DNA of 64,000 nucleotides from Escherichia phage VTCCBPA_322, in the sequence record PP989839.1; one strand, 5' to 3'. Of this stretch, positions 9,185-56,201 are shown piece after piece. The first letter of the stretch is position 1, and each line of letters begins with the position of its first letter. The notes under the pieces were generated by a model. The model was given only the letters and a program-made list of their open reading frames with translations, did not search any database and had not been told where the DNA came from. The position numbers and the translations under genes were made by a program.

Positions 9185-9192
9185 ACAGTAAC

Positions 9193-9214: not shown

Positions 9215-9235
9215 TAGAAAAACGAAGAGGTTATT

Positions 9236-11533: not shown

Positions 11534-11535
11534 AC

Positions 11536-11561
11536 GAAAGCCCCCAATTAAGGGGGCTTTT
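11536..11561. terminator. bidirectional terminator hairpin AAGCCCCC-AATTAA-GGGGGCTT
   Basis: 8-bp stem between convergent genes ending at 11533 (+) and 11563 (-); T-rich flank on the + side. Confidence 0.55.
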
Positions 11562-11562
11562 C

Positions 11563-11943
11563 CTATATGGAGTTCACTGTTTGCATTACCCTGACTGACA
11601 CTGATGTTAGGGTAATTACTTGACCTGAGATATTGAACATACCCAGCTGGATACCATCTACCATAAACGGGTCTGTTGAACCGAGTGTGTAAGTAGCTAA
11701 TACATTATCTCTGTTAGCAATGTCCGTACCTTGTACCTTAACACTAGCGTCTGAACCCACTATCGTAGTTCCATTGGTTCGCCTTGTTTGTGTTCTCCAT
11801 TCCCTAGCTGTACCAGCACCTCCTGCAATAGTTCCTGAGATACGTACACTAAACATTACCTGGGTATTTCTGGTTCTAACAGGAAACTTAAGATTACCCT
11901 CTTCAATTGTTAGTGCTGCTGTACCTCCAGGAGTTTTAGTCAT
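11563..11943 (-). CDS. hypothetical protein encoded antisense to the late operon
   Basis: Track ORF 11563-12012 starts at TTG; first ATG at 11943 gives 126 aa (MTKTPGGTAALTIEEG...); rich in AGA/AGG/CGA/ATA/CTA codons unlike core genes. Confidence 0.4.
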   Translation of the reverse strand: MTKTPGGTAALTIEEGNLKFPVRTRNTQVMFSVRISGTIAGGAGTAREWRTQTRRTNGTTIVGSDASVKVQGTDIANRDNVLATYTLGSTDPFMVDGIQLGMFNISGQVITLTSVSVRVMQTVNSI

Positions 11944-12032
11944 GCCTGGTAAAGCAAAGTAATTGAACCAGGACTGGTCATTTACTGCCTGGTTCCCTGT
12001 CCACGTATACAAGTCCAGAAGGAAAGTATCTT

Positions 12033-12188
12033 CTAACTCGGTTGGGGGAAAGGTAGCAGTTCTGGTGGGATCTCTGAGATGTTATTAGCAGAAACTATTC
12101 GTTCCCCATAACTTCCCACGACCAACAATCCTCCCTTCATTTTGCATACAACATCCTTACCACTTTGGAAAATATCTTTAATAGACAT
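12033..12188 (-). CDS. small hypothetical protein
   Basis: ATG 12188 with GAGGT SD; MSIKDIFQSGKDVVCKMKGG...; upstream of the 126-aa gene on the same strand. Confidence 0.25.
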   Translation of the reverse strand: MSIKDIFQSGKDVVCKMKGGLLVVGSYGERIVSANNISEIPPELLPFPQPS

Positions 12189-12312
12189 AGTTACCTCGCA
12201 GTCGATACCAGACACTATGTCTGGATGTATTCCATCATACTAAGTATTATCTAAGAGTCATCTTATGATACGACCCTATTGGGGTTCCTAACTTTACAAC
12301 TACGGTAATATT

Positions 12313-12642
12313 ATGAATGAATCGGGTGAACTGCTTCTAGTCAGACTGGAGGAACGATTGAAGACTCTGTTTGAGAACCAGACAAGGGACAGGCAGGACC
12401 GTGAGAAACTGGAGGAAACTCTGGGAGAACTACGGGATTCAATCAATGACATAGGCAATAGACTAAAGAATGTGGAGGATAGCTTAGCTAAGAATGAACC
12501 TACTATTGAAGAGTTCATCACCATTAAGCATAAGGTCGTTGGTGCCGGAATTTTTGGTAAGTGGGTATGGGCTGGGGCAGGTGCAATTATCGGGGTACTG
12601 GCTGCTGCAAGACGGGAGATATTCGCATGGTTCGCAGGCTAA
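12313..12642 (+). CDS. lysis-cassette membrane protein (coiled-coil N-terminus, C-terminal TM helix; holin or antiholin candidate)
   Basis: 109 aa; charged heptad-like N-terminal region then VVGAGIFGKWVWAGAGAIIGVLAAA; first gene of the lysis cluster. Confidence 0.4.
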   Translation: MNESGELLLVRLEERLKTLFENQTRDRQDREKLEETLGELRDSINDIGNRLKNVEDSLAKNEPTIEEFITIKHKVVGAGIFGKWVWAGAGAIIGVLAAARREIFAWFAG

Positions 12643-23380: not shown

Positions 23381-23824
23381 ATGGATTTGTCATTCTTAAC
23401 AGGCAACCAAACTCCACAGCCAGCTGCTATGTCTTGGATGTCTAATAACAATCAGAACTTTAATACCCCGGCTATGAACTATGTACCTGGTGCAACTATT
23501 GGTATGGGAGCAAATACAGGAGTAGCTTCTCCTACCTCTTTCCTGTCTGGTTCAGCTAATCAGTTGGGTTTGAATGTACCCACCTTCCAACTAGGCTTAG
23601 GTGCACTTGGTTCATTAGCGAATATCTATAGTGGTTTCCAGGCTAATAAGTTAGCCAAAGACCAGTTGAACTTTACCAAGAGTGTTACTAACACTAACCT
23701 GAATAATCAGATTAAGTCTTATAACACTGCACTGGAAGACCGTGCTCGTAGTCGTGCTACAGCAGAGAACCGTGACCAGTCTACTGCTGATGCTTATATT
23801 GCAGCTAATAAATTAACCCGTTAA
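23381..23824 (+). CDS. virion protein
   Basis: 147 aa; AGGAGA SD before ATG 23381. Confidence 0.4.
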   Translation: MDLSFLTGNQTPQPAAMSWMSNNNQNFNTPAMNYVPGATIGMGANTGVASPTSFLSGSANQLGLNVPTFQLGLGALGSLANIYSGFQANKLAKDQLNFTKSVTNTNLNNQIKSYNTALEDRARSRATAENRDQSTADAYIAANKLTR

Positions 23825-23836: not shown

Positions 23837-25801
23837 ATGGCTCAAATTACATGGCGTAATGTTGATGCACCCAACTTCTCTGGGGTTGGTGACAGCATTC
23901 GCACATTTGGCAACATGATTGGTAACGCCACCTCCGGCTTAAGTGATGCACTGGGTAATTTCCAGAACGCTGCCAAGCAGGAGGCTGGCAATGCCGTCAT
24001 GATGAATGCTATGCAGTATCAAGACCCTACTGAGTATCGCAATGCTTTAGCATCCGGTGCACTGTTTCAGGGGGTTGACCCTTCACTGGTAAACCAACGT
24101 ACTCTCCAGAATCTGGATGAGCGAGCAGGCACACTTCTGACCCAACAAGGTCAGCAGGGAACCAATGACTATAATGCTTATCGCTTTGGTCGTTTACAGG
24201 ATACTAATGCTGCATTAGATAGTGCTTCCCCAGCTATTCGTTTACTGTCTGAGGCTTATCAGTCTGGTGACCAGAATCGTATTAATGCTGCATTGGGTCA
24301 GACGCGTGAAGCGTTATCTGCACTACCTGCTGACCAACAACTGGATATGTTGAGTCGTCTACAAGGACAAGGTGGTCAGGCTATCAATCAAGCACAGAAC
24401 CGTTTTGATTTAGGCGTGGCTCAACGTAATGATGCAGATAGTCAGGCAGCTATGGGTGTAATGTCTCAAATTACCCGTGGTGCTGAGAACCCCAATGATG
24501 CTCGTTTGCTGGCAGAAGCATATAGTAAAAACCTGTCCCCTGTTGCACAGGCACGTTTACAGGAAATGCTCGCTCGTGCATACCCGGGTGTCTATGGCAA
24601 TAATGTTGGTGCTACATCTGCTCCCGGTACTGCTGGTACTCGTCAGGGTTCCCCTTATGATGTTACTTATCAGTTTGCTGGTACATCTACTCCTATTACT
24701 CAAATGAGTATTGGTGATGTAATTAAACACCAGGATGTTATGAAGACTAATCAGGGTGCTTCCCCTGTTGGTGCATTCCAGATTAACCAAGCTACCTTGA
24801 AAGACTTTGCCCCCAAAGTTCTTGGTTCAGATTGGCAGAACCAACCTCTTTCTCCTGAGAACCAGGAGAAGATTGGTAAGGCTATTTTTGAGGCTCGTAA
24901 GAATGGTAACCTTAAAGATACCTGGGCTGCTTTACCTAACTCTACCCCTGGTGCTTATAAGGATATGACTTGGGAACAGATTAAACCTGTTATTGCCCAA
25001 GCTGAAGTAGGGGCTGACCCATTCGCTCTGATTCAGAATAATCAAGGAAATCAGGCAGTATCTACCTTGGCTCAGGGTATGATTGGTACACGTTCTATGC
25101 AGGATAACACCGGTAGTCTTAATACCGATTTCCTGGGTACTGTCACCGATAATACTCCAGTAGGTGAGATTGCTAATCGTCTACTGGATGGTGACTTTAA
25201 GGGTGCTGACCGTAACTGGGTACTTAACCGATTAACTGATATTTCTCAACGTGGGAATATGTCTCCAGCTATGGCTGCTGCTGTTATGCAACGTGCACAG
25301 ACTGGTGTACCGGAAGGTTATATTAGTCGTGCTATTGATGCGGTTAACCCATTCATTACCAACGAAGCCGGTAATGGTATGCGTCTTAATGACCGTCTGG
25401 TAGATCAGTTAATTGAGGGTGTACAACGTGGTGAACCACTGGAAGGCAGTGTGCGAAACCTTGGTCGTGCTCAAGCTATGCAGAATATTCAGGCAGCACA
25501 GACTGCTTATGATGCTGCTGTAGCTGCACTGACAAATACCCAGAACAAGATTAACACCGGACAAACCGGTCTTACTGCATTGTTACCCGCACGTCAGGAA
25601 GCTGTTACTAAAGCTGCTGCAATGCTTCAAGCTGCACAAGCCCAAGTACAAGCAGACCCAGCTAACCTGGCTCCAAGAGGTTTTCGGTCACAGGCTAGTG
25701 TGGACAGAGCACGAGCCAAGGAAGATGAAGAACGTGCTGCACGTTACCTACGTCAGGCACAAGGTTTGCCTGAGTATATGCAACCAAGACAAAATCGGTA
25801 A
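23837..25801 (+). CDS. virion protein
   Basis: 654 aa; Gln/Ala-rich low-complexity regions; immediately upstream of vRNAP. Confidence 0.4.
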   Translation: MAQITWRNVDAPNFSGVGDSIRTFGNMIGNATSGLSDALGNFQNAAKQEAGNAVMMNAMQYQDPTEYRNALASGALFQGVDPSLVNQRTLQNLDERAGTLLTQQGQQGTNDYNAYRFGRLQDTNAALDSASPAIRLLSEAYQSGDQNRINAALGQTREALSALPADQQLDMLSRLQGQGGQAINQAQNRFDLGVAQRNDADSQAAMGVMSQITRGAENPNDARLLAEAYSKNLSPVAQARLQEMLARAYPGVYGNNVGATSAPGTAGTRQGSPYDVTYQFAGTSTPITQMSIGDVIKHQDVMKTNQGASPVGAFQINQATLKDFAPKVLGSDWQNQPLSPENQEKIGKAIFEARKNGNLKDTWAALPNSTPGAYKDMTWEQIKPVIAQAEVGADPFALIQNNQGNQAVSTLAQGMIGTRSMQDNTGSLNTDFLGTVTDNTPVGEIANRLLDGDFKGADRNWVLNRLTDISQRGNMSPAMAAAVMQRAQTGVPEGYISRAIDAVNPFITNEAGNGMRLNDRLVDQLIEGVQRGEPLEGSVRNLGRAQAMQNIQAAQTAYDAAVAALTNTQNKINTGQTGLTALLPARQEAVTKAAAMLQAAQAQVQADPANLAPRGFRSQASVDRARAKEDEERAARYLRQAQGLPEYMQPRQNR

Positions 25802-25809
25802 TACTAATA

Positions 25810-25831
25810 AAAGCCCTTCGGGGCTTTTTTC
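25810..25831 (+). terminator. rho-independent terminator AAAGCCC-TTCG-GGGCTTT + TTTC
   Basis: Perfect stem with TTCG loop and T-run directly after the stop at 25801. Confidence 0.7.
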
Positions 25832-25839: not shown

Positions 25840-25857
25840 GCTTACTGTAGAGTAAGC
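25840..25857 (+). promoter_or_regulatory. hairpin GCTTACT-GTAG-AGTAAGC upstream of vRNAP gene
   Basis: 7-bp perfect inverted repeat between the terminator and the vRNAP SD (AGGAA 25883-25887). Confidence 0.3.
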
Positions 25858-25895
25858 TTCCTATATACGATATAAGTTTGAACAGGAAACATGCT

Positions 25896-28800
25896 ATGTC
25901 AACATTTGACCGTCTGGCAGGTTTCGCAGACAGCATCACTAATGCCAAGCAAGTCGATGTCTCTACTGCAACCTCTCAGAAGCAAGCTGCACAAGGGCAA
26001 AGCCCTTTCCAATTAACCCCAGAGAATGCTTACAATCTCCAAACTGGTCGTGTAGGTAATCTTGGAATCGGTGCATTCGAACCAGGTTCACTTCAGGCAG
26101 ATTTCACTCAAGCCTCTCCATTAGAAATTCTTAATAAATACGGTAATGAGCAAGGTCTACAGATTCTTAATAGCCGAGCTAATGCTGCTGATGTTGTACG
26201 TCAGGACTTATCTAAGCAACGTACTAACGCAGAAGCATTTGGTGATACTCTTTCTGGTGTTGGTCTTGGTGTTGCTAATACCCTTGGGGGCATTGCTGCT
26301 CTTGGCACAGGTCTGGTCAATGATAATGCCGGGGCATCCATTGCTTCCGGGATGGATTGGTTGAATGAAGGTGTACACAATCTACAGTCTGATGCACTGA
26401 ATGCTACCCGTAAGGTTGTTCAGAATCAGAACCTGATTTCTGCACAAAAGAACCAGAAACTTTATGAAGAAGACATTAAGAATGGGGAGAGCAGTTTGGT
26501 TGCCTCCTTGTCTCGCATTGGTCGTGACGCTTTTGATTCCGTTGCTAATACACTTGATAATGGTATGGCTGCCACCGATGGACTGAGTGAAGGTGTTGGT
26601 TCCCTCTTTACTGGTGGTCCACTTATCCGTGGTGTATCTGCACTTGGTAAAGTAATGGTAGGTGGTGATAAAGCTATTAAAGGTATTACCTTAGCTGCTG
26701 AGTTAGGTTCACGCCCTGCACAGGTTGCATTGTCTGCTGGTCGTGTTGCTGCACCTGCTATAGCAATTGGTGGTATGGAAGCTGGTGGTGCATACCAACA
26801 GACTGCTTCTGAAATCATGAAGATGTCCCATCAAGAATTAGCAAGTAAGTCTCCTGTTTATCAACAACATATTGCTGATGGTTTATCCCCTGATGAAGCT
26901 CGTCGTCAGACTGCATCTGAAACAGGTATCGTTGCTGCTGGCTTAACTGCTCCGGTTGCTGCTGCTACTGGTCCACTGGTATCCAAATTTGAACTCAACC
27001 CCCTTAAAGTAGGTTCACTGGCTGGTGCTGGCTCTAACATGCTACGTGAGACTGTAGAAGAAGGTATCCAGTCCGGTACTAGTCAGTTTGCACAGAACAA
27101 AGCAATTCAGGGTAATGTAGATGCTAAGCGTGATTTGCTTAAAGGTGTCGGTGAACAAGCAGGTCTTGGTGCACTTTATGGCTTCGGTAGTGCTGGTGTT
27201 GCTCAGGCTCCAGGTGCAACTGTTAAAGCTGTTGGTGCTTCTGCTGGGCCTGCTTTACGTACTACTCTGGCTGGTGCTTCTCTGGTTGGTAGTGCATTAG
27301 CAAAAGCTGCCTCTCCTATTACTAACATCCTGGTTCAACGTGGGGAAGAAGTTGCTAAGCGTAATGAACAAGCATCTCCTGTATCAGACGCTACAGTTAA
27401 CGCTGCTGCACAAGAAGCTACTGCTCAGGCAGAACAAGCACAAGCAACTGTACAGGAAGCAGTAGATGCAATGGATATTTCTCCTGAAGAGAAAGCTGCT
27501 GCTACTCAGTATGCTGCTGACTTAACTCAGGCAATGAAGTTTGACCCAGTAGAGTTAGAGCAAGCTAATCCAGCAATCCGTGAAGCTGTTTCTGGTTCCA
27601 CTAACCGTGTAGAAGCTATTCAGAAGATGGCTGACCTGGTTAATACTGCTGAAGACCCTAACGTTCAAATGGAAGCTGCAATCCAGATGTATGACAACAT
27701 CATGTCTATGGATAGCTTCATTAATCGTGACCCGGGTGCTTTGGCTAATCTGGAACAGGGTTCTCCTGCTGCTAATATTGTTGACCAGTTCTCCGGTCTG
27801 ATGGCTAACGTACAGAATACTCCAAAGGTACTTCGTGCATTCCGTGCCATCCATTCTATGATTCAGGAACAGGCTGAAGCAGGTAAGTTAAAAGCTACTG
27901 AAGAAGCTAATCAAGCCCAAGCAAACAACATTGCTATGGCTGCTGATATGTCTCCAGAAGTATTGGATGCAGATTCAGTGAACATGGTTCTGAAACATGC
28001 AAGTGAAGGTAAGATTACACTGGGTAATCGTCAGCGTGCTGCCTTGCAATCTGCTGCTGCTTTATTACAAGGAGCACGGGAATTTGACGCTAAAGCAGAA
28101 GAACTGGGCTTACGTCCTCAGGACATTGTTAGTAAACAGATTAAAACCGACGAATCTCGTTCTAATGAAGGTCAGTACTCTGCGTTGCAACATGCTAAAC
28201 GCATTCGTTCTGCGTACAACTCTGGTAACTTCGATTTGGCTTCCGCTTATCTCGACGACTTTATGAAGTTCGCCCAGCACATGCAGAATAAGGTCGGAGC
28301 GTTGAATGAGCATCTGATTTCTGGGAATGCGGATAAGAATAAGTCTGTCCATTATCAGGCTCTTACTCCCTCCCGTGAATGGGTACGTAGTCGTACTGGC
28401 CTCGGTGTCAATCCGTATGATACCAAGTCGGTTAAGTTTGCCCAGCAAGTAGGACTGGAGGCCAAAACCGTAGCTGATATTGCTAATGCACTTGCTACGG
28501 CTTACCCGGAGCTTAATGTTTCTCATGTGAAGGTTACCCCATTAGATTCACGTCTGGACAAGCCTGCTGCCCAGGTGGTTAAAGAGTTCCGTCAGGGCAA
28601 TCTTGACGCTGCTCAATCCCAACAGACCAATGAACCAGTGAATCAGGTTGATAAATCTCCTGCACCTGTGCAAGAGGCCACTACTACTGTACAGCCTAAA
28701 GCTAAACTAGTGGTAGAAAATAAGACTGTTCCTGTTAAGGAGACTAGTTCAAAAGCAGAAGAAGTCTCTACTACCGAATCCGAAAGGGATGCTTATGTGA

Positions 28801-31800
28801 AAGAAAATACTATTTCACAGGACATCCTCAATAAGAGCGGTGATCGTAGAGAGAGTCCTTGGCTCTTTGCTGATGGTACTGTTGTTGGTTCTAACGGCGA
28901 TCACATTAGCCTGTCCGATGTATTTGGTCACGATGGCTATCGTGATATGTCTTTGGATACTGGTGCTGTACGTTCTACTTTCTATAAAGGCAGTGAGCAA
29001 CCATTCGTATCTTTGCAACTTTTTGATAATCAGAAGCTAACTACTGAACAATTCAATACTGTTCAATCATTCGTAGAAGCAAACAATGCACTGATTCAGA
29101 TTGGTGTAGATACGTCTGGGCGTAACACCAATAACGTTGAGAAGATAGAAGTATCACTGGCCCAACTGAAAGCAGACTATACCGTTGGTGGTAAACCCCT
29201 GTCTGAGATGGAAACAGTGTTCCCTGTCTATAACAATGACAAGACACCGAACCAGTTCCTGAAAGCATTTACCCTGCCGGAAGAACCTAAGTCTCGCACC
29301 ATTGGTTCTGAATCCCCTTTGACTGATGTTAAGCAAGCACTGTCTTCTGCTGCTCGCTTTGAAGCATTCACTCAAAAAGAAAATAACGCTCTCACAAGTG
29401 ATGTGATTAAGCGTTATCAGGACTTAATGGACTTTGGTGAAACTCTGAAGACTACTTTGTCTGACCGTCTGACTAAGTTTCTTGCTAATAAGAATGTTGG
29501 TAAACGTTTTGCAGAAGGTACTGAGGCTAACCGTTGGGTAGGTGGTAAGTTACTTAACATCGTAGAGAAAGATGGGGATACCTTTAAGTTCAATGACCAG
29601 TTGTTAGAGACTGCTGTACTTGCTGGTCTGCAATGGCGACTTACTGCTACACAAAATGCTGCTGTTAAAGATATGAAAGACGTAGCTGCTATTACTGGAG
29701 TAGAAGCATCCTTGTTACCTGAAGGTATCCTGGCTGAATTTGAGAATGCTCAGACTCTGGTTGAAGCTACTAACTCACTGGCTCAAAAGATTGAATCTTA
29801 CTGGGGTCTGAATCGTAATCCTAATGCACCTCTGGGTTATACCAAAGGTATCCCAATGGCAATGGCTACAGAGATTCTGTCTTCTTTCATTGAGATGGGT
29901 GAAGTTAAAGAATCTATGCTGGATGTGTCTGAGTTTGACCCAGCTTCTAATAAGACTGTTGGTCTGTATACTATTGAGAAACTGGATGATAATGATGCCA
30001 TTAACAAATTCCCTACTGCTATTGAGGAAGCTGTCCTCGTAGAACCAGAAGAGAAAATGTACTTTGGTGATGATATTCCTTCCGTGGCTCAAACACAGTT
30101 ACGTAATCCTGCTGTTAAGAATACCCCAGAGCAGAAAGCTGCTCTTAAAGCAGAACAGGCTACCGAGTTCCGTGTACACATGCCTATGGTTAACTTCTAT
30201 GAAGCATTAGGTCGTGACAACATTCTGGAACTGATGGGTGCTGGTACTCTTAATCCTGAACTGCTGAACGTGAATACTGCTAAATCATTGGAAGGTAAAA
30301 ACCTGTCCGTGTCCATGGCATATGATTCCTTGTTTGGTGTAATCAATCAATTACAGGAACAGGAGAATGGTCTGGATACGCCTATTCACTATGGTTACAA
30401 CATGACCCGTGTAGGTCGTATGCAGATGCTTGGTAAGAACAACCCACAATCCAGCAAGCTGGTTCGTGAAGCAATTCTGCCAACCTTCTCTACTATTGAC
30501 TTAAGTAATGAAAATAGCCAAACGTTCTCTGACTTCCAGTTAGGTCTGGCTCAGGCATTGGGCATCAAGGTTCATAATATGTCCCGTGAAGCTATGTCTG
30601 AAAAACTGACCAAAGCTCTGGAAGGTAATTTGAAACCTGCTGTTGATATGATGGTTGAGTTTGATAAGTCCGGTCACTTACCTGCTGATGCAGTAGATAT
30701 TCTGAAGACATCTCTGGGTGGTGATAAATCATTCGTAGCTCTTATGGCTCTTATGGAATATGCCCGTTACCTTAACAGTACTGACCGTGCTAACTTTAAT
30801 ACCCCACTGTACGTTGAAGCCGATGGTGTAACCAACGGGCCAATCAATGCAATGGTATTAATGACCGGTGGTAAGTTCACTTCGGATTGGATTAAGAATA
30901 CTGCTAAAGGTGGTTTGTTCTTCGGTAAAGCTGGTAAGACTATGAACGAACACCGTTCACAGGATGACAGTGTTGACTTGTATGAAGCATCTACTAATGG
31001 TCTGCAACAAGCACTAAATGAGTTACGTACTACTTACCGTAATAATGTTCCGGTCATGAACCAGATGAATCATCTTCAGAAGTTAATGGACCTGTTCATT
31101 AAAGACTTTAACCTGAACGAAGACGGTACTTTGGACCTGAAACGTGGTATCGCTAAAAACCCACTGACTATTACCATCTATGGTTCTGGTGCTCGTGGTA
31201 TTGCTGGCAAGATGGTTAGTGCAATTACTGACACCATCTATGAACGCTTCAGTGATGTTCTGCAAGCTCGTGCTGCTGACCCTAGCATTTCCCCAGCTAT
31301 GGCAATGTTTGGTAAGGAGGCTGCGTCTGAGGCTAATGCTCAGGCTATGCTGGATACTTTCCTTACATCTATGGAAGCACTGACTGGTAATGTTCCAGTT
31401 ATGCGTAAAGGTCAACTGTCTATTCAACAGGTAGAAGGTGCTCTGACTGGTAAGTTAGACCCACAGAAATTTACTGTATCTGGTAATGCCCTGAAGAACT
31501 TACAAGAGAACATGCTTCACCTGTTCGTTGAACCAATGCGTACTGGTATCCGTAATACTGTTGGTGAAGGTCTTATGCATTCTACTGAGAACTTGCAGAA
31601 GGCTACCCAGATTCAGTCTTTGGTTCTGCAAGACATGTTCCAACAAGCAGTACAGGCTAAGCTGGCAGAAAAAGAAAAAGACCCAACATGGAAGAAGGGT
31701 GATTTCTTAACACAGAAAGAACTTAATGAAATCCAGGAATCATTATCTCCACTGGCTCCAATGATTGAGACTGGTTCACAGACTTTCTACATTGCTGGTA

Positions 31801-34800
31801 GTGAGAATACTGACGTTGCTAACCAAGTTCTGGCTACCAACTTAGATGATCGTATGCGTGTGCCAATGAGCATCTATGCTCCTTCACAGGCAGGCGTTGC
31901 AGGTATTCCATTTATGACCATTGGTACTGGCGATGGCATGATGATGCAGACCCTTTCTACTATGAAAGGTGCTCCGAAGAATACCCTGAAAATCTTTGAT
32001 GGTATGAACATTGGTATCGACAACATCACTGATGCAAGTCGTAAAGCTAACGAGGCTGTATACACTTCCTGGCAGGGTAACCCTATCAAGAATGTCTACG
32101 ACTCCTTCTCTAAGTTCATGAAGAATGTAGACTTCAGCAAACTGTCTGATGAAACCAAACAGGCTATCGCTAAATCTGCTCTGGAATATGACCAGCGTGA
32201 AGGTGCTACCGATGACCTGTTACGTGTTGGTGCTGAACAGATTGAACGTAATCTGCGCAACATTGCTCTGGGTGTGGATATTCGCCACAAAGTAATGAAC
32301 CAGGTACAGACTACTGTTGACCAGATGGCTGCTGTAGGTGCTCCTTATGTGAACAACGGTAAAATCTCTCTGGAAGGTCTGACTGTAGACCAGCAAGTAG
32401 CTAAGCTGAACGAACTGTTTGATGCTGAGTTAAACAAGCGTCGTGATGCAGTACGTGCTGCTAAAGCAGAACCAGTGAAAGAAGTACCAGCAATGGAACA
32501 GGTTGGTCGTGTACTGAAGTCTGGTGTACGTCTGCTGTCTAATACTGCTATCTCTAAGCTGGCTAAAGAGATGTCTCCGGAACAGCAAGCGGTACTGAAA
32601 GAAGTACAGAAATCCCTTGCTGCTAAAGACTACAAAGTTGTTTATGGTACTCCTGCTCAATTAGATGCTTATGCTATTGAGAAGAATATTACTCGCCCAG
32701 CACCAGAAGATATTGAAGCTGCTGAAGCAGGTAATGCATACGGCTGGACTAACTTTGATGATAAGACTATCTACTTAGTTACCCCTTCCTTGGAGACTCT
32801 GGTTCATGAATTGGTACATGCTTCTACTTTCGAATCTGTACTGGCTCATTATGAAGGTACTCCAAATGAAGCAGTCCAAAATATTGAAGACTTAATGAAT
32901 CAGTTCCGTACTCTGGATGTTAAGGATGAATCTCCGGCAGTACGCGAAGCATATGCAGATGCTCTTAATACCATTAATGGTCATTTGTCTAATGGCTTCA
33001 TTGAACCAGCAATGGCTAAAGCTGCTGCACTTAACGAGTACATGGCATGGGGTTTAACTAACCGTGAACTAATTAGCAAGCAGAAGAAAACTACTGCACT
33101 GAAGACTATGGTTCAGGCTGTGTATGAAGCAATCAAGCGTCTGGTATTCGGACGTAAGAAAGCTCCCGCTAATGCAGATGATATGTTCTCTGGTTTACTA
33201 TTTAACTCTGCTGTAGTTATGCGAGGACAAGCTCCTACTGCTGCTGTAGCCAAGGATACTACTCTGTTCCATAACAAAGCATACGGTGACAATACTCGTC
33301 TGGAAGAGCTAGGGAAAACCTTCGATAAACTGATTACAGACTACATTGGTTCAGAACCAGTACAACAAGTAATTCGTAAGGGTAAATTCTCTGATGCAGT
33401 AGTGAATGCAACTAAAGTAACCCGTGATGTTCAGGCTCATGGCTTCACTATGAATATGCAGGAACAGCGTCTATTCACTAACATCGTTGCTGCTCTGGCT
33501 ACTGAAGCTGCCATTAGTCCTGCTGCCCTGGCTCGTGCACAGGAATACTATACGCATGTTACTAAGAACCTGACCGTTGAATCGTTCATGGCTGACCCGG
33601 ATAGTACTAACCCTGCTGACCGTTACTATGCTCAACAGAAGTTCGATACCATTATGGGTGCTAACAATATTGAGTTTGATGCACAGGGCCGTTCTTCCTT
33701 ACTGCCTACCTTTGTTGGTCTGGCAATGGTAAGTGAAGAGGTACGTAAAGTACTGGCAGACATTCCTGTTATGAAAGCAGATAAGCAATCCGGTAATACA
33801 GTTGATGCAATGCTGACTAACATTGGTACTGCTGCAATGGCTAGTCTGAATGCTCGTGTAGCGGGTGATACTAAGGCTACCAATGTACAGGAAGGTATGG
33901 ATGCACTGGCTCAGACAATCATGCAGACGAGTCTCAATGCACAGTCCTTCTATGATTCCGTTGCTACTCCTAGTGGTAATGCTATTGACCGTGCTAACCA
34001 GTATCTGGTGGATTCTATTGATGCATTGTCTACCCGTGCTTTAGAAGGTGCTCGTGAAGTTGCAGCTAATACCAAGAACCCGTTGGTTAAAGGTGCTGCT
34101 CATGCTGCACAACTAATAGCTGCTATTGCTACAGAGAAGAATGGTGAAATCGTAGCTGAAGGCGTTATGGCTGCAATGAACCAGGGTAAAGTGTGGCAAC
34201 CTTTCCATGACCTGGTTAATGACTTAACAGGCCGTACTAAGAGCAATGCTTCTGTATACGATTTGATTAAGGCAGTACGTGCACAGGTACAAGCTGACCG
34301 TCAACAGTTCCGTGAACATTTGCCTACCACTATCGCATCTAAGTTCAGCCGTAAGCTGACTAATGATGAATGGAAAGCAATGCATACTGGTATGGGTAAA
34401 ACTGACTTAGCTGTTTTACGTGACACTATGTCTCTGGCTGAAATTCGTGACTTGCTGACTGACCAAAAGATTGTTGACCGTGAAGTGAATAAGCTGGAAG
34501 CAGACTTACAGAAACAAGCTGGTCGTAACTGGCCTCTGATTAGCCGTAAATCTAAGCAACTAGCTCAGTACATGATTAACGGTACAGTTGGTAATAACCT
34601 GCTGCGTAATGCTACAGCAATCTCTCGTATGCTGGGTGAACGTCAGGCTGCACGTTCTACTGTAGATGTAGCTCAACTGGATAAACTGATTACTCTGTAT
34701 GCACTGGAAGCAATGAGTAAGACTGACCGTGAGATGTTATCTTCACTGGCTCAATCAGAAGTTGATGGAATTGATTTTGCTACTTCTTACCTGGTTGGTC

Positions 34801-36608
34801 AGCGTAAAGATGAAATGGCTAAAGCCAAGTCTGACATGCGTGCAACCCTGAACCAGTACAAAGGTTATATCCCAAGTGAGACTAAGCAAGGTGTTAACCT
34901 GATTGTTGCTGAAGACAGTCAATTTGCTGATTTGATTGAGAAGTCTTATGTACGTCTGGGTACTTATCAAGGTAGTTCTGCTAATCGTGGTTCAGCACGT
35001 AGCTACTACTTCGCACCGGTACAGGCACAGGCTCCATTCTCACAGGGTATTCTACAGAACGTTCGTAATACTGCTGGTGGTGTAGACCTTGGTACAGGAT
35101 TTACGATGGGAACCATGGTGGCTGGTCGTATTACTGACAAGCCTTCTGTAGACCGTATCACTAAAGCACTGGCTCGTGGTGAACGAGGTAATGAGCCACT
35201 GATGCCTGTATATGATGACAAAGGTAATGTAGTTGCTTATGAACAATCTATTGACCCTAACATGCTGAAGCACATTGAGGGTGAGAACCATCTTGCTCGT
35301 GCAATCGGTGTATGGCGTGGTCGTCAGGTGGAAGAAGCTAAGGCTCAGCGTTTCAACGATATGCTAATTGAGAATCTGCATAGCATGTATGAGAACGACA
35401 TTAAGATGTCTGCCTCTAATAAGTCCCAGTACGTTAACCTTCTTGGTTCTAAGCTGGACCCAGTAACTGCTGATGCCCTTAAGCTGATGAACAGTGAAAC
35501 ACGTCAGAAAGCAGAAAGCCTGTTTGGCGAAGGTGAACTGTGGGTTCGTCGTGACATGCTGAATGATGCACTAGGCTATCGTGCAGCTTCCGTTGGTGAT
35601 GCCTGGTCTGGTAATTCTCGTTGGTCCCCGGAAACACTGGATACCTTTAAGAAAGCTATGCTTGGTGTGTTCGGCAACCGTGCCTACAAGTATGTAATGG
35701 GTGGTGAGAACCTGGTTCAGAACTTAGTTAAAGAAGCTAAGACTCTGATTGTAGTTAAATCAGTGGTTGTACCTGCTGTTAACTTCCTGGCTAACCTTTA
35801 CCAGATGGTTGGTCGTGGTGTACCCGTTAAGAACATTGCTAAAAGCATTCCACAGAAGACTGCTGAGATTAACCAGTACCTGAAATCTCGTCTGCGTCAG
35901 GTAGACGCAGAAGCAGAATTACGTGCAGCCACTAACCCGAACCAGATTCGTAAACTTAAGGCTGAGATTCAGTCTATTACTGACAGCCATAAGCGTATGA
36001 GTATCTGGCCTCTGTTAGAAGCTGGTGAGTTCTCTTCAATTGCAGATGCTGGTATTGGGCGTGATGATATCCTGATTACTGAGGGTAAACTCCATGAATA
36101 CATGGATAAACTGGCTGATAAGTTACCTAAGTCTGTACGCAACGCTGGACGTTATGCACTTATCACCAAAGATACTGCTCTCTTCCAGGGTATCCAGAAG
36201 ACGGTTGAGTACTCTGACTTTATCGCTAAAGCAATCATCTATGATGATTTGACTCAGCGTAAAGGTAAGACTCGTGAAGAAGCACTAGGACGTGTAACGG
36301 AGGAGTTCATTAACTATGACCGTTTGCCTGGTCGCTTCCGTGGGTATATGGAAAGTGTTGGTTTAATGTGGTTCTACAACTTTAAGATTCGTTCTGCGAA
36401 AATTGCAGTATCCATGATTCGTAACAACCCGGTACATGCAGCTATGGCTATGTTGGCTCCAACTCCTACCATGTTTGGTAACGTTGGTTTACCTATTCAG
36501 GACAACATCTTCAGTATTGCTGCACAAGGTAATCTTGGTTACTCCTGGGGCTTCGGTCAGGGCTTACGTGCCCATAACCTTAACCCTTGGCTCAACCTCA
36601 CTAACTAA
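25896..36608 (+). CDS. virion-encapsidated RNA polymerase (N4 vRNAP-like giant protein)
   Basis: One uninterrupted ~3,570-codon frame; first in-frame ATG 25896 after AGGAA SD (track start 25878 is TTG); a ~3,500-aa virion RNAP is the N4-like hallmark; RNAP motifs not verified. Confidence 0.8.
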   Translation: MSTFDRLAGFADSITNAKQVDVSTATSQKQAAQGQSPFQLTPENAYNLQTGRVGNLGIGAFEPGSLQADFTQASPLEILNKYGNEQGLQILNSRANAADVVRQDLSKQRTNAEAFGDTLSGVGLGVANTLGGIAALGTGLVNDNAGASIASGMDWLNEGVHNLQSDALNATRKVVQNQNLISAQKNQKLYEEDIKNGESSLVASLSRIGRDAFDSVANTLDNGMAATDGLSEGVGSLFTGGPLIRGVSALGKVMVGGDKAIKGITLAAELGSRPAQVALSAGRVAAPAIAIGGMEAGGAYQQTASEIMKMSHQELASKSPVYQQHIADGLSPDEARRQTASETGIVAAGLTAPVAAATGPLVSKFELNPLKVGSLAGAGSNMLRETVEEGIQSGTSQFAQNKAIQGNVDAKRDLLKGVGEQAGLGALYGFGSAGVAQAPGATVKAVGASAGPALRTTLAGASLVGSALAKAASPITNILVQRGEEVAKRNEQASPVSDATVNAAAQEATAQAEQAQATVQEAVDAMDISPEEKAAATQYAADLTQAMKFDPVELEQANPAIREAVSGSTNRVEAIQKMADLVNTAEDPNVQMEAAIQMYDNIMSMDSFINRDPGALANLEQGSPAANIVDQFSGLMANVQNTPKVLRAFRAIHSMIQEQAEAGKLKATEEANQAQANNIAMAADMSPEVLDADSVNMVLKHASEGKITLGNRQRAALQSAAALLQGAREFDAKAEELGLRPQDIVSKQIKTDESRSNEGQYSALQHAKRIRSAYNSGNFDLASAYLDDFMKFAQHMQNKVGALNEHLISGNADKNKSVHYQALTPSREWVRSRTGLGVNPYDTKSVKFAQQVGLEAKTVADIANALATAYPELNVSHVKVTPLDSRLDKPAAQVVKEFRQGNLDAAQSQQTNEPVNQVDKSPAPVQEATTTVQPKAKLVVENKTVPVKETSSKAEEVSTTESERDAYVKENTISQDILNKSGDRRESPWLFADGTVVGSNGDHISLSDVFGHDGYRDMSLDTGAVRSTFYKGSEQPFVSLQLFDNQKLTTEQFNTVQSFVEANNALIQIGVDTSGRNTNNVEKIEVSLAQLKADYTVGGKPLSEMETVFPVYNNDKTPNQFLKAFTLPEEPKSRTIGSESPLTDVKQALSSAARFEAFTQKENNALTSDVIKRYQDLMDFGETLKTTLSDRLTKFLANKNVGKRFAEGTEANRWVGGKLLNIVEKDGDTFKFNDQLLETAVLAGLQWRLTATQNAAVKDMKDVAAITGVEASLLPEGILAEFENAQTLVEATNSLAQKIESYWGLNRNPNAPLGYTKGIPMAMATEILSSFIEMGEVKESMLDVSEFDPASNKTVGLYTIEKLDDNDAINKFPTAIEEAVLVEPEEKMYFGDDIPSVAQTQLRNPAVKNTPEQKAALKAEQATEFRVHMPMVNFYEALGRDNILELMGAGTLNPELLNVNTAKSLEGKNLSVSMAYDSLFGVINQLQEQENGLDTPIHYGYNMTRVGRMQMLGKNNPQSSKLVREAILPTFSTIDLSNENSQTFSDFQLGLAQALGIKVHNMSREAMSEKLTKALEGNLKPAVDMMVEFDKSGHLPADAVDILKTSLGGDKSFVALMALMEYARYLNSTDRANFNTPLYVEADGVTNGPINAMVLMTGGKFTSDWIKNTAKGGLFFGKAGKTMNEHRSQDDSVDLYEASTNGLQQALNELRTTYRNNVPVMNQMNHLQKLMDLFIKDFNLNEDGTLDLKRGIAKNPLTITIYGSGARGIAGKMVSAITDTIYERFSDVLQARAADPSISPAMAMFGKEAASEANAQAMLDTFLTSMEALTGNVPVMRKGQLSIQQVEGALTGKLDPQKFTVSGNALKNLQENMLHLFVEPMRTGIRNTVGEGLMHSTENLQKATQIQSLVLQDMFQQAVQAKLAEKEKDPTWKKGDFLTQKELNEIQESLSPLAPMIETGSQTFYIAGSENTDVANQVLATNLDDRMRVPMSIYAPSQAGVAGIPFMTIGTGDGMMMQTLSTMKGAPKNTLKIFDGMNIGIDNITDASRKANEAVYTSWQGNPIKNVYDSFSKFMKNVDFSKLSDETKQAIAKSALEYDQREGATDDLLRVGAEQIERNLRNIALGVDIRHKVMNQVQTTVDQMAAVGAPYVNNGKISLEGLTVDQQVAKLNELFDAELNKRRDAVRAAKAEPVKEVPAMEQVGRVLKSGVRLLSNTAISKLAKEMSPEQQAVLKEVQKSLAAKDYKVVYGTPAQLDAYAIEKNITRPAPEDIEAAEAGNAYGWTNFDDKTIYLVTPSLETLVHELVHASTFESVLAHYEGTPNEAVQNIEDLMNQFRTLDVKDESPAVREAYADALNTINGHLSNGFIEPAMAKAAALNEYMAWGLTNRELISKQKKTTALKTMVQAVYEAIKRLVFGRKKAPANADDMFSGLLFNSAVVMRGQAPTAAVAKDTTLFHNKAYGDNTRLEELGKTFDKLITDYIGSEPVQQVIRKGKFSDAVVNATKVTRDVQAHGFTMNMQEQRLFTNIVAALATEAAISPAALARAQEYYTHVTKNLTVESFMADPDSTNPADRYYAQQKFDTIMGANNIEFDAQGRSSLLPTFVGLAMVSEEVRKVLADIPVMKADKQSGNTVDAMLTNIGTAAMASLNARVAGDTKATNVQEGMDALAQTIMQTSLNAQSFYDSVATPSGNAIDRANQYLVDSIDALSTRALEGAREVAANTKNPLVKGAAHAAQLIAAIATEKNGEIVAEGVMAAMNQGKVWQPFHDLVNDLTGRTKSNASVYDLIKAVRAQVQADRQQFREHLPTTIASKFSRKLTNDEWKAMHTGMGKTDLAVLRDTMSLAEIRDLLTDQKIVDREVNKLEADLQKQAGRNWPLISRKSKQLAQYMINGTVGNNLLRNATAISRMLGERQAARSTVDVAQLDKLITLYALEAMSKTDREMLSSLAQSEVDGIDFATSYLVGQRKDEMAKAKSDMRATLNQYKGYIPSETKQGVNLIVAEDSQFADLIEKSYVRLGTYQGSSANRGSARSYYFAPVQAQAPFSQGILQNVRNTAGGVDLGTGFTMGTMVAGRITDKPSVDRITKALARGERGNEPLMPVYDDKGNVVAYEQSIDPNMLKHIEGENHLARAIGVWRGRQVEEAKAQRFNDMLIENLHSMYENDIKMSASNKSQYVNLLGSKLDPVTADALKLMNSETRQKAESLFGEGELWVRRDMLNDALGYRAASVGDAWSGNSRWSPETLDTFKKAMLGVFGNRAYKYVMGGENLVQNLVKEAKTLIVVKSVVVPAVNFLANLYQMVGRGVPVKNIAKSIPQKTAEINQYLKSRLRQVDAEAELRAATNPNQIRKLKAEIQSITDSHKRMSIWPLLEAGEFSSIADAGIGRDDILITEGKLHEYMDKLADKLPKSVRNAGRYALITKDTALFQGIQKTVEYSDFIAKAIIYDDLTQRKGKTREEALGRVTEEFINYDRLPGRFRGYMESVGLMWFYNFKIRSAKIAVSMIRNNPVHAAMAMLAPTPTMFGNVGLPIQDNIFSIAAQGNLGYSWGFGQGLRAHNLNPWLNLTN

Positions 36609-36615
36609 ATGAAAA

Positions 36616-36635
36616 AGCCCCTCTAATGAGGGGCT
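36616..36635. terminator. bidirectional terminator AGCCCCTC-TAAT-GAGGGGCT
   Basis: 8-bp stem at the convergence of the + late arm (stop 36608) and the - arm (stop 36649); T-rich flanks on both strands. Confidence 0.7.
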
Positions 36636-36648
36636 TTACTCTTAGAAG

Positions 36649-36879
36649 TTAAGGTGTTTTCCACATTTTAGGCTTACGCCCTTCACTTGGAAATTTACCA
36701 GTCTCCTTAATCTTTCGTAGTGTTTCTTCAGATGGGAACCACAGGAATGTGAAGTAAAGCTTCTTAGCTACGTAACGAGTTACTCCTAGTTTCTCTGCGA
36801 TTTCATCGAATGAATATGTACGAACGGTATTGTTGAGAATGGCTTCACGAACAACAGAGGTAATAGATACTTGTGTCAT
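36649..36879 (-). CDS. small putative DNA-binding protein (HTH-like)
   Basis: 76 aa; SFDEIAEKLGVTRYVAKK resembles a helix-turn-helix; last gene of the - arm. Confidence 0.4.
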   Translation of the reverse strand: MTQVSITSVVREAILNNTVRTYSFDEIAEKLGVTRYVAKKLYFTFLWFPSEETLRKIKETGKFPSEGRKPKMWKTP

Positions 36880-42288: not shown

Positions 42289-44442
42289 TTATTTACCAGC
42301 GTAGCGTTTAGCCACGGTGACCATTACGGTTGCATTCAATTCATCATCTGGTAATGGATTAGCCAGTTTCTTATTGAATGTGTGGACGGCTTGCTGTACT
42401 TGAGCAAAGTCCCAACCACTATCAACCAATGCCAGTGCGTACTTAATCATTTGATTATTACGATTACCGGAGGCAATACGACTAGCGAACCAACGCTCCA
42501 GATTATCCAACGACTGTACTTCCTTCATCTGGTTCTGGAACTGCTCGTTCTTACTAGTACGAGGAATAAAGTCACGCACATCTAACAGATTCGCATCGAG
42601 ATTATAATGATAAGAACCAGTCTCGCAGGACATCCACTTCTTGGCTCGTTGATTAGCTGACTCATCCGTTTCGAATGGTAGCCAAGCCATAACATTATTC
42701 ATGAACTCTTTATATTCCTCAGTATCGAGGTGTAACTCATAGTTCATTGGAATAATCAGACGGAAGCGGTTCTCTTCATCAGTATGACGCTTGGTGGTAT
42801 AGGTCATGAACTTATATTCCTTCATCAGTTCATGGCACGTATGCAGTGGTACTCCACCATCACAATCAATAACAATCATGTTAAATCCTGGAATAACGTT
42901 CTCTTCAGAACGATGCCCATTCTTCATGTGATGGTTTACCCAGTGCATACCGGGAGCTTGGGTTAATACATGCAACTGGTCGAACGGTACACGCTCACCA
43001 ATGTAGTCATAAGCAAAGCTATCACTATACGCCACAATCATCTCATTGATGTCTGTCTCTTTAAGAGTTTCACCACGGAAGAACTCAATACCCTCATTGA
43101 AGGTCTTCTTAATGATGATGTGCTGTTTGTAACCCCATGCAGTAGCAAGAGTCATCATCTCATTACGAGCTGCATTGCCACTCTTATAGAATGGCAAAGA
43201 CTCCAGTAAGTCAGCATGAGTTACTTCTTTACCTACAGAGGCAATGTACTTAGCCAGCTTCACATAGGCTTTTTCACGATTGAGGATTGTCTGGAATGCT
43301 GCTCCAGATTCCTCTACAAGCAGAATTGCTTGTTTAAGGTGAGCCATCTCAATGAATGAACTCTGGTCAACAAACGCCAGTGCACCTGCCAGCTTAAGAG
43401 CTTTGAAGTAGCGGTGGGAGATTTCAGCCTTACGAATTTCTTCGTGGTCAGCCATAGCCTCTGCTTGTTTCTCACAATCAATCTTGTAAGTAATAAGAGC
43501 AATGCCCACAGCATCTTCCACAATCATCTTAAAGCCAAACAAGTTTGGGTCAGCCAGACTATGGAAGTGGTTAGCCCATTTACCAAGAGACTGTACGTTA
43601 TCCTGTTTAATCAGGTTACGGTAGATTTCTTCCGGAGTCAGTGTTGCATGTGCTCGTTTGTCTAAATGCCCTATGGCAAACAGACAACGACGTGCATACC
43701 CTGTATCAAGGAAATCATAGAACTGGTCTTCAGTCTGTCCACCATCCAGCAGCTTACTCGGAGTACCGAACAGCAGCAGGTTAGTTGGAGTCTTACCATC
43801 CAGTTCTTCGCCACGAACGCTTTCAGCAGTATTCTTGGTCAGCTTCTGCTTAACCTTGCCCTGGTCATATAGCTCCAGGAACAAGGTTAATACATCAGAG
43901 TTAGCCAGCAGATTTGAACCAATTTCATCAATCTGAAGGTTAATAGAACCACAGCCAGCCATTAACAGCTTATGGCGTAGTTGTTTAACTGCTGGTGGAG
44001 TACCTGAGTCAAACGTAAACGGATATGCTCCAGCACGTTTATATTCTGCTTCAACTTTATCAAACTCTTCCTGCTGGTCAGTGCCCTGACGTGCAGAACG
44101 TTCGTTAGCAATCTTCCATAGACGGTCATTTGCAATGACGGGCATGGTGTCTTCCATAAAACGCTTACGGAAGCCAGTCATGAACCCGTCTTCGATGATA
44201 TTTACTGAGTGACCTTTACCGAAACCAGATGTAGCCAACGCTATAGCGTAGATGTTTACCGGCAGGTCACCACGGTCTTTAGTTACGATGGTTGCACCCA
44301 TGCAGGATGCCATTTTAGCCAAGAAGTAGGCTACTTCGACACGGAAGAATCCCCGGTCATTGTTCTGGGTTTTATTGCAGAGCACATCTACGATTTCTTC
44401 AATCGCCGGATGATGCACTACTCCGGTAAGGTCAATACTCAT
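42289..44442 (-). CDS. putative DNA primase / replication initiation protein
   Basis: ~717 aa from ATG 44442 (ATGA overlap with upstream stop); large replication-module protein beside polymerase and helicase; positional assignment. Confidence 0.45.
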   Translation of the reverse strand: MSIDLTGVVHHPAIEEIVDVLCNKTQNNDRGFFRVEVAYFLAKMASCMGATIVTKDRGDLPVNIYAIALATSGFGKGHSVNIIEDGFMTGFRKRFMEDTMPVIANDRLWKIANERSARQGTDQQEEFDKVEAEYKRAGAYPFTFDSGTPPAVKQLRHKLLMAGCGSINLQIDEIGSNLLANSDVLTLFLELYDQGKVKQKLTKNTAESVRGEELDGKTPTNLLLFGTPSKLLDGGQTEDQFYDFLDTGYARRCLFAIGHLDKRAHATLTPEEIYRNLIKQDNVQSLGKWANHFHSLADPNLFGFKMIVEDAVGIALITYKIDCEKQAEAMADHEEIRKAEISHRYFKALKLAGALAFVDQSSFIEMAHLKQAILLVEESGAAFQTILNREKAYVKLAKYIASVGKEVTHADLLESLPFYKSGNAARNEMMTLATAWGYKQHIIIKKTFNEGIEFFRGETLKETDINEMIVAYSDSFAYDYIGERVPFDQLHVLTQAPGMHWVNHHMKNGHRSEENVIPGFNMIVIDCDGGVPLHTCHELMKEYKFMTYTTKRHTDEENRFRLIIPMNYELHLDTEEYKEFMNNVMAWLPFETDESANQRAKKWMSCETGSYHYNLDANLLDVRDFIPRTSKNEQFQNQMKEVQSLDNLERWFASRIASGNRNNQMIKYALALVDSGWDFAQVQQAVHTFNKKLANPLPDDELNATVMVTVAKRYAGK

Positions 44443-45919: not shown

Positions 45920-46224
45920 TATTCCCCCTTGGGAATCATGTTTGCCTGGAACTCTGGTTCAGACATCAGACCCAGGTTGTTAATAGACAGATAAACGATG
46001 TCTTTCAAATCAACCGAAGTGTCGAAACGCTGGTCCAGACTAATCTTCAGGGAGTGATTGGCACGGGCCAAGTCTTTATAGGTCACATGAGGCTCGTCAG
46101 TGAGCAGCATTGTGTTCATGGTAAGCAGGGAGCCATCATCAGCTTTGGGAAGCTGGAAAATTACCTGTGCTGCCACCATCCAATGATATTTTCTGACAAC
46201 GGTTTCTTTAGTACTTTTAGTCAT
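45919..46224 (-). CDS. hypothetical protein
   Basis: 101 aa; translationally coupled to neighbours. Confidence 0.35.
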   Translation of the reverse strand: MTKSTKETVVRKYHWMVAAQVIFQLPKADDGSLLTMNTMLLTDEPHVTYKDLARANHSLKISLDQRFDTSVDLKDIVYLSINNLGLMSEPEFQANMIPKGE

Positions 46225-56158: not shown

Positions 56159-56201
56159 TTATTTACTCTCCAGATTAAATGTTGCTTCCTGGTTATGACT
56201 A

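Follow-up and report, generated by a model that had tools for sequence, protein, structure and literature searches.

The virion RNA polymerase (vRNAP) of coliphage N4, gp50, is packaged in the virion and injected, and early transcription is resistant to rifampicin (PMC4496689). The three mapped N4 vRNAP promoters carry a GC-rich heptamer centered at -11 with flanking inverted repeats, and residues W129, K267/K268, K849/K850, D901 and R904 have been named as promoter contacts (PMC4496689). In 2026, cryo-electron microscopy (cryo-EM) delimited an N-terminal domain (residues 1 to 919), a linker (907 to 1006), the polymerase domain, Pol (1008 to 2104), and a C-terminal domain (2123 to 3500) that is autoinhibitory and required for encapsidation (PMC13434306, PMC13492108). 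An HExxH motif has been described in the C-terminal domain (PMC13434306, PMC5512222), and the linker has been described as low-complexity (PMC13434306). N4-type vRNAPs are also viewed as "polyvalent proteins," which enter the cell with the DNA and gain accessory domains (Iyer et al. 2017, PMC5512222). Here we analyzed a 64,000-nucleotide (nt) stretch of Escherichia phage VTCCBPA_322 (PP989839.1), hereafter the window, in which a giant open reading frame (ORF) spans positions 25896 to 36608 of the plus strand. We conclude, with a probability of about 0.98, that this ORF encodes the virion-encapsidated RNA polymerase, an ortholog of N4 gp50, of a Gamaleyavirus-type N4-like coliphage.

A preliminary description made from the letters of the window had reported an uninterrupted frame of about 3,570 residues and interpreted it as an N4-type vRNAP. 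The mechanical ORF extends from 25878 to 36608 on the plus strand, opens with TTG and is by far the longest of the window. Counted from the ATG at 25896, it comprises 3570 codons plus the stop, with zero internal stops. We consider this ATG the real start because the N-terminal residues MSTFDRLAGFADS align with residue 1 of N4 gp50 and because a Shine-Dalgarno sequence, AGGAAAC, sits 5 nt upstream of it. The size of 10.7 kb is thus real, but it is not exceptional as had been thought, being normal for the vRNAP family (N4 gp50 has 3500 residues).

The product resembles N4 gp50 from end to end. In a three-way alignment, amino acid identity to N4 gp50 was 66.8% overall, and it was 60.4% in the N-terminal, 71.0% in the polymerase and 69.9% in the C-terminal domain; identity reached 96.4% with PhAPEC5 gp54 and 97.9% with the UE-S5a vRNAP over the aligned positions. 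At the nucleotide level, the best megablast matches to the gene were at 94% (Uz-1 and U1G), with PhAPEC5 at 92.5% and a tail at 60 to 80%. All four vRNAP domains of Pfam scored above their cut-offs, with E values from 4e-29 to 7e-101: vRNAP_dom_2 (residues 1412 to 1527; E 2e-58), vRNAP_plug (PF21624; residues 1544 to 1625; E 3.6e-29), N4_RNAP_helical (residues 1703 to 1919; E 7e-101) and vRNAP_dom (residues 2001 to 2145; E 4e-56). PHROG 2206, "virion RNA polymerase," was matched over residues 25 to 3569. A PDB search matched full-length N4 gp50 chains to residues 1 to 965 and 1118 to 3569, and the mini-vRNAP crystal structures 2po4, 3c2p and 3q0a to the polymerase domain, in each case with E = 0. 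The similarity to the vRNAP family is overwhelming, and the N4-type assignment of the preliminary description was borne out.

We took the domain boundaries over from the N4 gp50 cryo-EM papers through the alignment. On the plus strand, the N-terminal domain comprises residues 1 to 901 (25896 to 28598; N4 residues 1 to 906), with hydrophobic stretches rich in Gly and Ala. It is followed by linker 1 (residues 902 to 1102; 28599 to 29201), which lies between it and the polymerase domain (residues 1104 to 2191; 29205 to 32468), the equivalent of N4 mini-vRNAP/Pol residues 1008 to 2104. The C-terminal domain consists of residues 2202 to 3570 (32499 to 36605; N4 residues 2123 to 3500) and includes the HExxH motif of the zincin-like C1 subdomain, HELVH, at residues 2304 to 2308 (32805 to 32819; N4 residues 2228 to 2232).

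The catalytic motifs, none of which had been seen by eye, were all found by alignment to N4 gp50 and the mini-vRNAP, with T/DxxGR and motifs A, B and C identical to those of N4. The numbering was carried through the alignment, a gp50 residue being the mini-vRNAP residue plus 997; for the catalytic residues, we assume the mini-vRNAP numbers given in brackets. The T/DxxGR motif reads TRVGR at residues 1504 to 1508 (30405 to 30419, plus strand; R1508 corresponding to R424), and the surrounding 11 residues are those of N4. Motif A contains E1641, Ala and the catalytic D1643 (30816 to 30824, plus strand; E557 and D559) within the N4 sequence LYVEADGVTNG, and motif B, the O-helix, contains R1750, K1754, Y1762 and G1763 (31143 to 31184, plus strand; R666, K670 and Y678 for the first three) within RGIAKNPLTITIYG, again as in N4. 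The catalytic Asp of motif C is D2035 (31998 to 32000, plus strand; D951), in the N4 context TLKIFDGMNIG. Every catalytic residue that we checked, including K1521 and R1524, is the same as in N4 within an identical 11-residue context.

Of the promoter contacts named for N4, six of the seven checked are kept, namely W129, K268, K849, K850, D901 and R904 in mini-vRNAP numbering, and a promoter of the kind that they recognize is predicted at the left end of the window. A scan of the N4 genome for GCTYCGC returned exactly three such hairpins, at positions 93, 562 and 4551, each followed by TTWTGG, and the early region of UE-S5a has three homologs, of the P1, P2 and P3 types. In the window, a predicted P1-type hairpin promoter occupies positions 311 to 325 of the minus strand. 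The plus strand, which is the template strand for leftward transcription, reads ACATGC-GGA-GCATGT at this site, giving a 6-bp stem and a GGA loop with its central G at -11; a GG start is predicted at 307/306. This hairpin is homologous to N4 P1, whose counterpart sequence is GTTGC-TTC-GCAAC-TTATGGACA at N4 position 93, and it is identical to both UE-S5a copies. Window positions 11 to 409 match the direct terminal repeat of UE-S5a (401 bp) at 98% identity, and therefore the window begins at the physical genome end with a terminal-repeat copy of P1. By homology, hairpin 311-325 is the predicted cognate promoter of the vRNAP.

The genomic setting is that of an N4-like phage. Comparison of the window with Schitoviridae placed it in Schitoviridae, Enquatrovirinae, Gamaleyavirus, collinear with PhAPEC5 and UE-S5a, so that the genome type proposed earlier is correct; the genus call rests on similarity and collinearity rather than on a formal intergenomic distance, and about 9 kb of the genome lie beyond the window. 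PhAPEC5 itself has this classification, and the annotation of its gene reads "virion RNA polymerase." Collinearity with PhAPEC5 runs over about 12.5 to 54 kb at approximately 91 to 92% identity, and collinearity with N4 is at approximately 70%. Both window ends match other Gamaleyaviruses, and the three stretches searched (the gene, positions 1 to 6000 and positions 54000 to 64000) are each approximately 90 to 94% identical to Gamaleyavirus records and approximately 70% identical to N4.

According to the annotation of UE-S5a and PhAPEC5, the plus strand carries, in order, the genes for terminase, tailspikes, lysis, portal, capsid, gp53, gp52, gp51 and vRNAP. The convergent minus arm, as annotated in relatives, carries tRNAs, SSB, primase, DNA polymerase, helicase, rIIB, rIIA, ThyX, dCTP deaminase, a VWA protein and an ATPase. 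The order gp53, gp52, gp51, gp50, followed by the convergent replication arm, is common to PhAPEC5, UE-S5a and N4. The vRNAP gene stands as a separate unit in the late structural arm, immediately behind the ejection-protein homologs gp52 (23381 to 23824) and gp51 (23837 to 25801), which we identified by synteny in the plus-strand arm. The sign of the GC skew flips at about 36 to 38 kb, as the convergent arms of the preliminary description predict, and the other genes on which it had based the genome type were recovered on the minus strand. These are a family A DNA polymerase (46221 to 48800; Pfam), a rIIA-like protein with a HATPase_c domain (53594 to 56158; Pfam) next to an ORF that lines up with the annotated rIIB-like gene of PhAPEC5 and UE-S5a (51538 to 53589) and, for the proposed MoxR/VWA pair, an AAA ATPase (61319 to 62371; Pfam) that adjoins a protein with DUF2201_N and VWA-like domains (60139 to 61314; Pfam). 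The bulk of the early region and the N4 RNAPII genes fall just past position 64000, which corresponds to UE-S5a position 65492.

The vRNAP gene is flanked by terminators, in agreement with the preliminary description. For the upstream side, we aligned the gp51-gp50 intergenic region of nine phages of Gamaleyavirus, Moovirus, Kaypoctavirus and Enquatrovirus. The intrinsic terminator of the gp51-like gene, AAAAGCCC-TTCG-GGGCTTTT plus a T run (25809 to 25830, plus strand), is kept in 9/9 phages, is invariant in this alignment and is annotated in PhAPEC5. Downstream, a bidirectional terminator with a 10-bp stem (36614 to 36637, both strands) is common to the vRNAP gene and the convergent minus arm and is annotated on both strands in PhAPEC5. 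The perfect 7-bp hairpin reported just upstream of the gene, GCTTACT-GTAG-AGTAAGC (25840 to 25857, plus strand), was confirmed. Immediately ahead of the start codon is a conserved block, GATATAAGTTTGAACAGGAAACATGCT (25869 to 25895, plus strand), with a candidate -10-like element of a late promoter, TATAAG, and the Shine-Dalgarno sequence; its first 12 nt are the same in the nine phages, one N4 base excepted. The GATATAAGTTTG block is invariant across the four genera, and the AACAGGAAAC stretch behind it varies at only three positions.

The motif TAATAGAYATARNTT occurs on the plus strand at 3080-3094, ahead of the terminase operon, and at 12179-12193, ahead of the late cluster beginning at 12313. 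It precedes gp50 in N4, is one base off in KP8 and Moo19, and has a degenerate copy at 25865-25880 (plus strand), ahead of the vRNAP gene. We propose TAATAGAYATARNTT as a candidate N4-type late-promoter element, with hairpin 25840-25857 lying over its putative -35 region. The same hairpin is unlikely to be a vRNAP promoter, as it has a 4-nt loop (8 nt in some genera) and neither a GC-rich heptamer nor a TTWTGG start region.

Apart from the a priori oddity of a 10.7-kb ORF, nothing speaks for an assembly or chimera artefact, or for a decayed pseudogene that has stayed open by luck. At the present base composition, the per-codon stop probability is 0.058, so that one stop is expected per about 17 codons; the probability of 3570 codons without a stop is about 1e-92, which rules out chance, and the second-longest open frame of the window has 1034 codons. 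The gene was matched by megablast in 89 phage records, 59 of which cover at least 80% of it. The translated ORFs of three relatives are intact and of similar length (3571 residues in PhAPEC5, 3450 in UE-S5a and 3500 in N4), so the frame is not an assembly artefact. Except at the linker insert described below, identity to UE-S5a is 91 to 99% in each 300-nt window of the gene, and every catalytic residue is intact. We thus regard an artefact or a pseudogene as so improbable as to be negligible. A different origin for the protein could be envisaged, as a non-packaged polyvalent protein of a prophage or plasmid with an N4-like RNAP module, and not the virion polymerase of a lytic phage. N4-like RNAP modules are indeed classed among the modules of polyvalent proteins (PMC5512222), and the family of the linker insert occurs in relaxase-type proteins of plasmids. 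However, collinearity with lytic Gamaleyavirus genomes extends over the whole 64-kb window and takes in the terminal repeat and the terminase, portal, capsid and gp51/gp52 genes, and neither the annotation of these collinear phages nor a Pfam scan of 9 neighboring ORFs, a subset of the ORFs of the window, pointed to integration or conjugation genes. A prophage or plasmid protein is therefore very improbable, and the virion polymerase of a lytic phage remains our reading of the ORF.

As for the upstream hairpin, it might be a chance palindrome or a mere part of the preceding terminator, without a function of its own: about 45 different perfect hairpins with stems of 7 bp or longer and 3- to 6-nt loops occur in the window, so that a single one is unremarkable, and hairpin 25840-25857 has no T run. 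Against this, the terminator proper is a separate, invariant stem-loop located 10 nt upstream. The sequence between the terminator and the GATATAAG block is variable, yet it folds to a hairpin at the same position in 9/9 phages of four genera, with stems that differ in sequence and still pair. These stems are GCTTACT/AGTAAGC with a loop of 4 in the group of the window, ATTCACT/AGTGAAT with a loop of 8 in EC1-UPM, CTCACT/AGTGAG in Moo19, CACACT/AGTGTG in KP8 and TTACACTA/TAGTGTGA with a loop of 4 in N4. Each hairpin folds better than 97 to 99.7% of shuffled sequences (0.3 to 3% fold as well). The core CACT/AGTG has become TACT/AGTA in the window, with both sides changed, and the outer pairs differ by lineage and remain paired. 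We read this covariation from the per-sequence folds and directly from the sequences, the MAFFT alignment of the arms having no consistent structural register. Two-sided stem changes with pairing kept indicate selection for pairing. The hairpin upstream of gp50 thus appears to be conserved as a structure across the four genera, and a functionless palindrome is an unlikely explanation for it.

Some points limit the reach of the vRNAP assignment. K267 of the mini-vRNAP, in the intercalating hairpin, is replaced by Asn. Both the early genes and the promoters of the P2 and P3 types fall outside the window. The mini-vRNAP numbers that we assume for the catalytic residues were checked by residue type and by the sequence context on which they land; they are probably right because each number falls on the expected residue type and pattern. 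Packaging, ejection and promoter specificity would carry over from N4 by analogy. No finding of our analysis contradicts the assignment.

The locus has the architecture of the N4 enzyme, an intact active site, conserved promoter-recognition residues, a predicted cognate hairpin promoter and a location in the late arm. By analogy with N4 (PMC4496689, PMC13434306, PMC13492108), production of the vRNAP would come late in infection and depend on host sigma-70 RNA polymerase, with the phage SSB as its activator. About four copies would be packaged by way of the C-terminal domain, which would keep them autoinhibited. Ejection would take them through the tail, along with the DNA and with gp51 and gp52, in the form of a "beads-on-a-string" chain. 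In the cell, the vRNAP would transcribe the early genes from hairpin promoters extruded by gyrase and SSB, presumably initiating with GTP 11 nt downstream of the loop center.

A departure from N4 lies in linker 1, which has about 200 residues here versus about 100 low-complexity residues in N4 (907 to 1006). The HMMER alignment to N4 is interrupted between residues 965 and 1118 of the query, and in the sequence alignment, this protein and that of PhAPEC5 have about 107 additional residues opposite the low-complexity linker of N4. The insert, residues 965 to 1098 (about 134 residues; 28788 to 29189, plus strand), is predicted to be a compact alpha/beta domain and is absent from N4 and UE-S5a. 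By tblastn, it is present in only 28 phage records, always within the vRNAP of G7C-type phages, and it is missing from UE-S5a, PBM-3, PGN829.1 and similar phages, which account for the gene matches with 96% coverage. The UE-S5a vRNAP is 120 residues shorter at the insert site and 97.9% identical elsewhere; very close relatives thus differ in whether they have the insert. Its GC content is 0.413, versus 0.445 for the gene.

An exhaustive HMMER search of 1.84 billion representative proteins identified 22 relatives of the insert. The 19 insert relatives whose architecture we checked are large multidomain or stand-alone proteins. The carriers of the domain were seen from Pfam scans of 17 relatives and from one tblastn match in PLSDB. 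One of 3675 residues combines SLT, SNF2 helicase, methylase and LPD39 domains (P0004), and another has methylase, ddrB-ParB and LPD39 domains (P0005). LPD38 is found in two relatives (P0006 and P0018), and LPD22 (P0008), an inorganic pyrophosphatase (InPase) domain (P0014) and a TrwC relaxase (P0020) in one each. A distant N4-type vRNAP (P0012) has the domain again N-terminal to the polymerase module. The PLSDB match is a Vibrio plasmid "LPD7 domain-containing protein" encoded directly behind mobC. A stand-alone form of 166 residues is encoded beside a ParB_N gene; the remaining genes of this metagenomic contig (18.6 kb) are for replication and a ubiquitin-like system.

In an alignment of 21 sequences of this family, S987, P988, L990, G994, D1002, H1003, R1026 and Q1052 are invariant and fall in the motifs SPWL..DG, GDH and TGAIR. 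With this alignment, AlphaFold2 predicted a compact alpha/beta fold (pLDDT 89.4, pTM 0.83), which we used in place of the poor single-sequence model (pLDDT 50.6). Pfam gave no match for the insert and the 21 family members; its LPD models gave none at E <= 1 for the 21 members, not all of LPD1-40 being in Pfam. A profile search of PDB with the insert yielded nothing significant (best E 0.026, over 37 residues), and Foldseek of the model against PDB and BFVD returned only a self-match to the pSb-1 vRNAP. We do not build on a weak drift toward Hjc or PD-(D/E)XK-like folds, since the conserved residues, with no Lys among them, do not support it. An intein or other self-splicing element was discarded: the boundaries have no Cys, Ser or Thr, there is no HN motif, and the insert is an in-frame domain family that is also present in unrelated proteins.

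The insert fits the pattern of polyvalent proteins, being a globular domain that recurs in large multidomain proteins, from phages and conjugative elements, which accompany the DNA into the cell. Its most likely role, we infer, is that of a passenger effector or accessory domain, delivered to the host with the polymerase and acting early. More specifically, it might represent an undescribed, independently folding domain family that has been repeatedly shuffled into proteins co-transferred with invading DNA, and might serve as an early effector carried on the linker, with the invariant SPWL..DG, GDH, R and Q residues as an active or binding site. We hold this fuller proposal only tentatively, as possible and somewhat doubtful. 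The family is carried by Gamaleyavirus vRNAPs and a distant vRNAP, by plasmid proteins of the relaxase type and by DarB-like helicase-methylase giants; in the host, the domain might act, for instance, against a defense system or in the handling of incoming DNA.

Elsewhere in the window, a 76-residue ORF (product starting MTQVSITSVVREAILNN; 36649 to 36879, minus strand) lies directly past the bidirectional terminator; it has no nucleotide match in PhAPEC5 and no Pfam match, and PhAPEC5 and N4 have a gp49 (DUF2829) homolog at this position. Two mobile HNH elements of PhAPEC5 are missing: the endonuclease gene between the primase gene and gp42 is absent from the window (44436 to 44442), as is the HNH-containing intron that splits the PhAPEC5 DNA polymerase gene (at about 47128), and the DNA polymerase ORF is uninterrupted. 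The tailspike or receptor-binding region (7222 to 12472, plus strand; ORFs 6089 to 9184 and 9236 to 11533) matches PhAPEC5 only in short stretches, and UE-S5a encodes an endosialidase and a K5 lyase at the tailspike position; this region is the host-range module, which is usually hypervariable in G7C-like phages. Just ahead of a terminator at 11537-11560, close to where the second tailspike gene ends, two perfect hairpins with G-rich 4-nt loops are found at 11470-11520 (plus strand), TTACGCAT-GGGT-ATGCGTAA and ACAATTT-GGTA-AAATTGT. A giant palindrome in the window was considered and rejected, as self-BLAST of the window gave no match; the apparent minus-strand match to the PhAPEC5 locus at 70% identity that had prompted the idea came from the oppositely oriented N4 locus.

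Among the described systems, the protein can first be set beside N4 gp50 (YP_950528; PDB 2po4, 3c2p and 3q0a for the mini-vRNAP, and 9pnq, 9pnr and 11gp for the full-length protein). Both belong to the same length class (3500 versus 3570 residues) and share the order of the N-terminal, polymerase and C-terminal domains, the gene neighbors, 67% of residues, the catalytic motifs, the C-terminal HExxH, the plug, the motif B loop, the -11G-binding Trp and, as predicted here, hairpin promoters with a GC-rich heptamer and a GG start. In contrast, N4 has no folded insert of about 134 residues in its linker and retains K267, and divergence is greatest in the N-terminal domain (60% identity). The G7C-like Gamaleyavirus vRNAPs (PhAPEC5 gp54 [AGV99338], Bp4, G7C, Uz-1 and U1G) match at 92 to 94% of nucleotides over 99 to 100% of the gene and have the insert, the flanking terminators and the upstream hairpin. 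They show point differences only, and no database record exceeds about 94 to 95% nucleotide identity, so the phage is a distinct isolate or a species-level relative. The UE-S5a/PBM-3/PGN829.1 group (e.g., WVP99857) has an identical context, and its difference is the 120 residues of the insert.

Among polyvalent proteins, the RNAP module is always fused to a zincin-like peptidase and sometimes to ART, lysozyme or PBECR1 domains (PMC5512222). The fusion partners of the insert relatives (TrwC relaxase, SLT, SNF2 plus methylase, ddrB-ParB, InPase and LPD22/38/39) are of the same kind, whereas the insert itself matches no LPD family present in Pfam. T7 RNA polymerase and the mitochondrial single-subunit RNA polymerases share the right-hand fold and the T/DxxGR, A, B and C motifs. 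The vRNAP differs from them in being about four times larger and, if the properties of the N4 enzyme apply here, in being packaged in the virion, inactive on duplex DNA and directed to a DNA-hairpin promoter.

The giant ORF thus encodes an enzyme that has been studied in depth and for which full-length cryo-EM structures appeared in 2026. Both the gene and its family are already known, as are the mechanism and the genomic setting; near-identical genes are in GenBank, and the understanding of the family is unchanged. The identification is useful for annotation, since several GenBank relatives label the vRNAP gene "DNA polymerase" or "gram positive anchor domain protein," which are annotation errors. 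The preliminary description lacked three things, the linker insert, the left-end hairpin promoter and the cross-genus conservation of the upstream hairpin; of these, the insert and the conserved upstream hairpin may be new, as small additions. Our analysis also adds a residue-level map of catalytic and promoter-contact residues for the Gamaleyavirus enzyme. Finally, it adds that the linker, low-complexity according to the structural papers on N4, can contain a facultative folded domain. This fits the "beads-on-a-string" view, and the presence or absence of this domain among 98%-identical vRNAPs provides natural isogenic pairs for its study.

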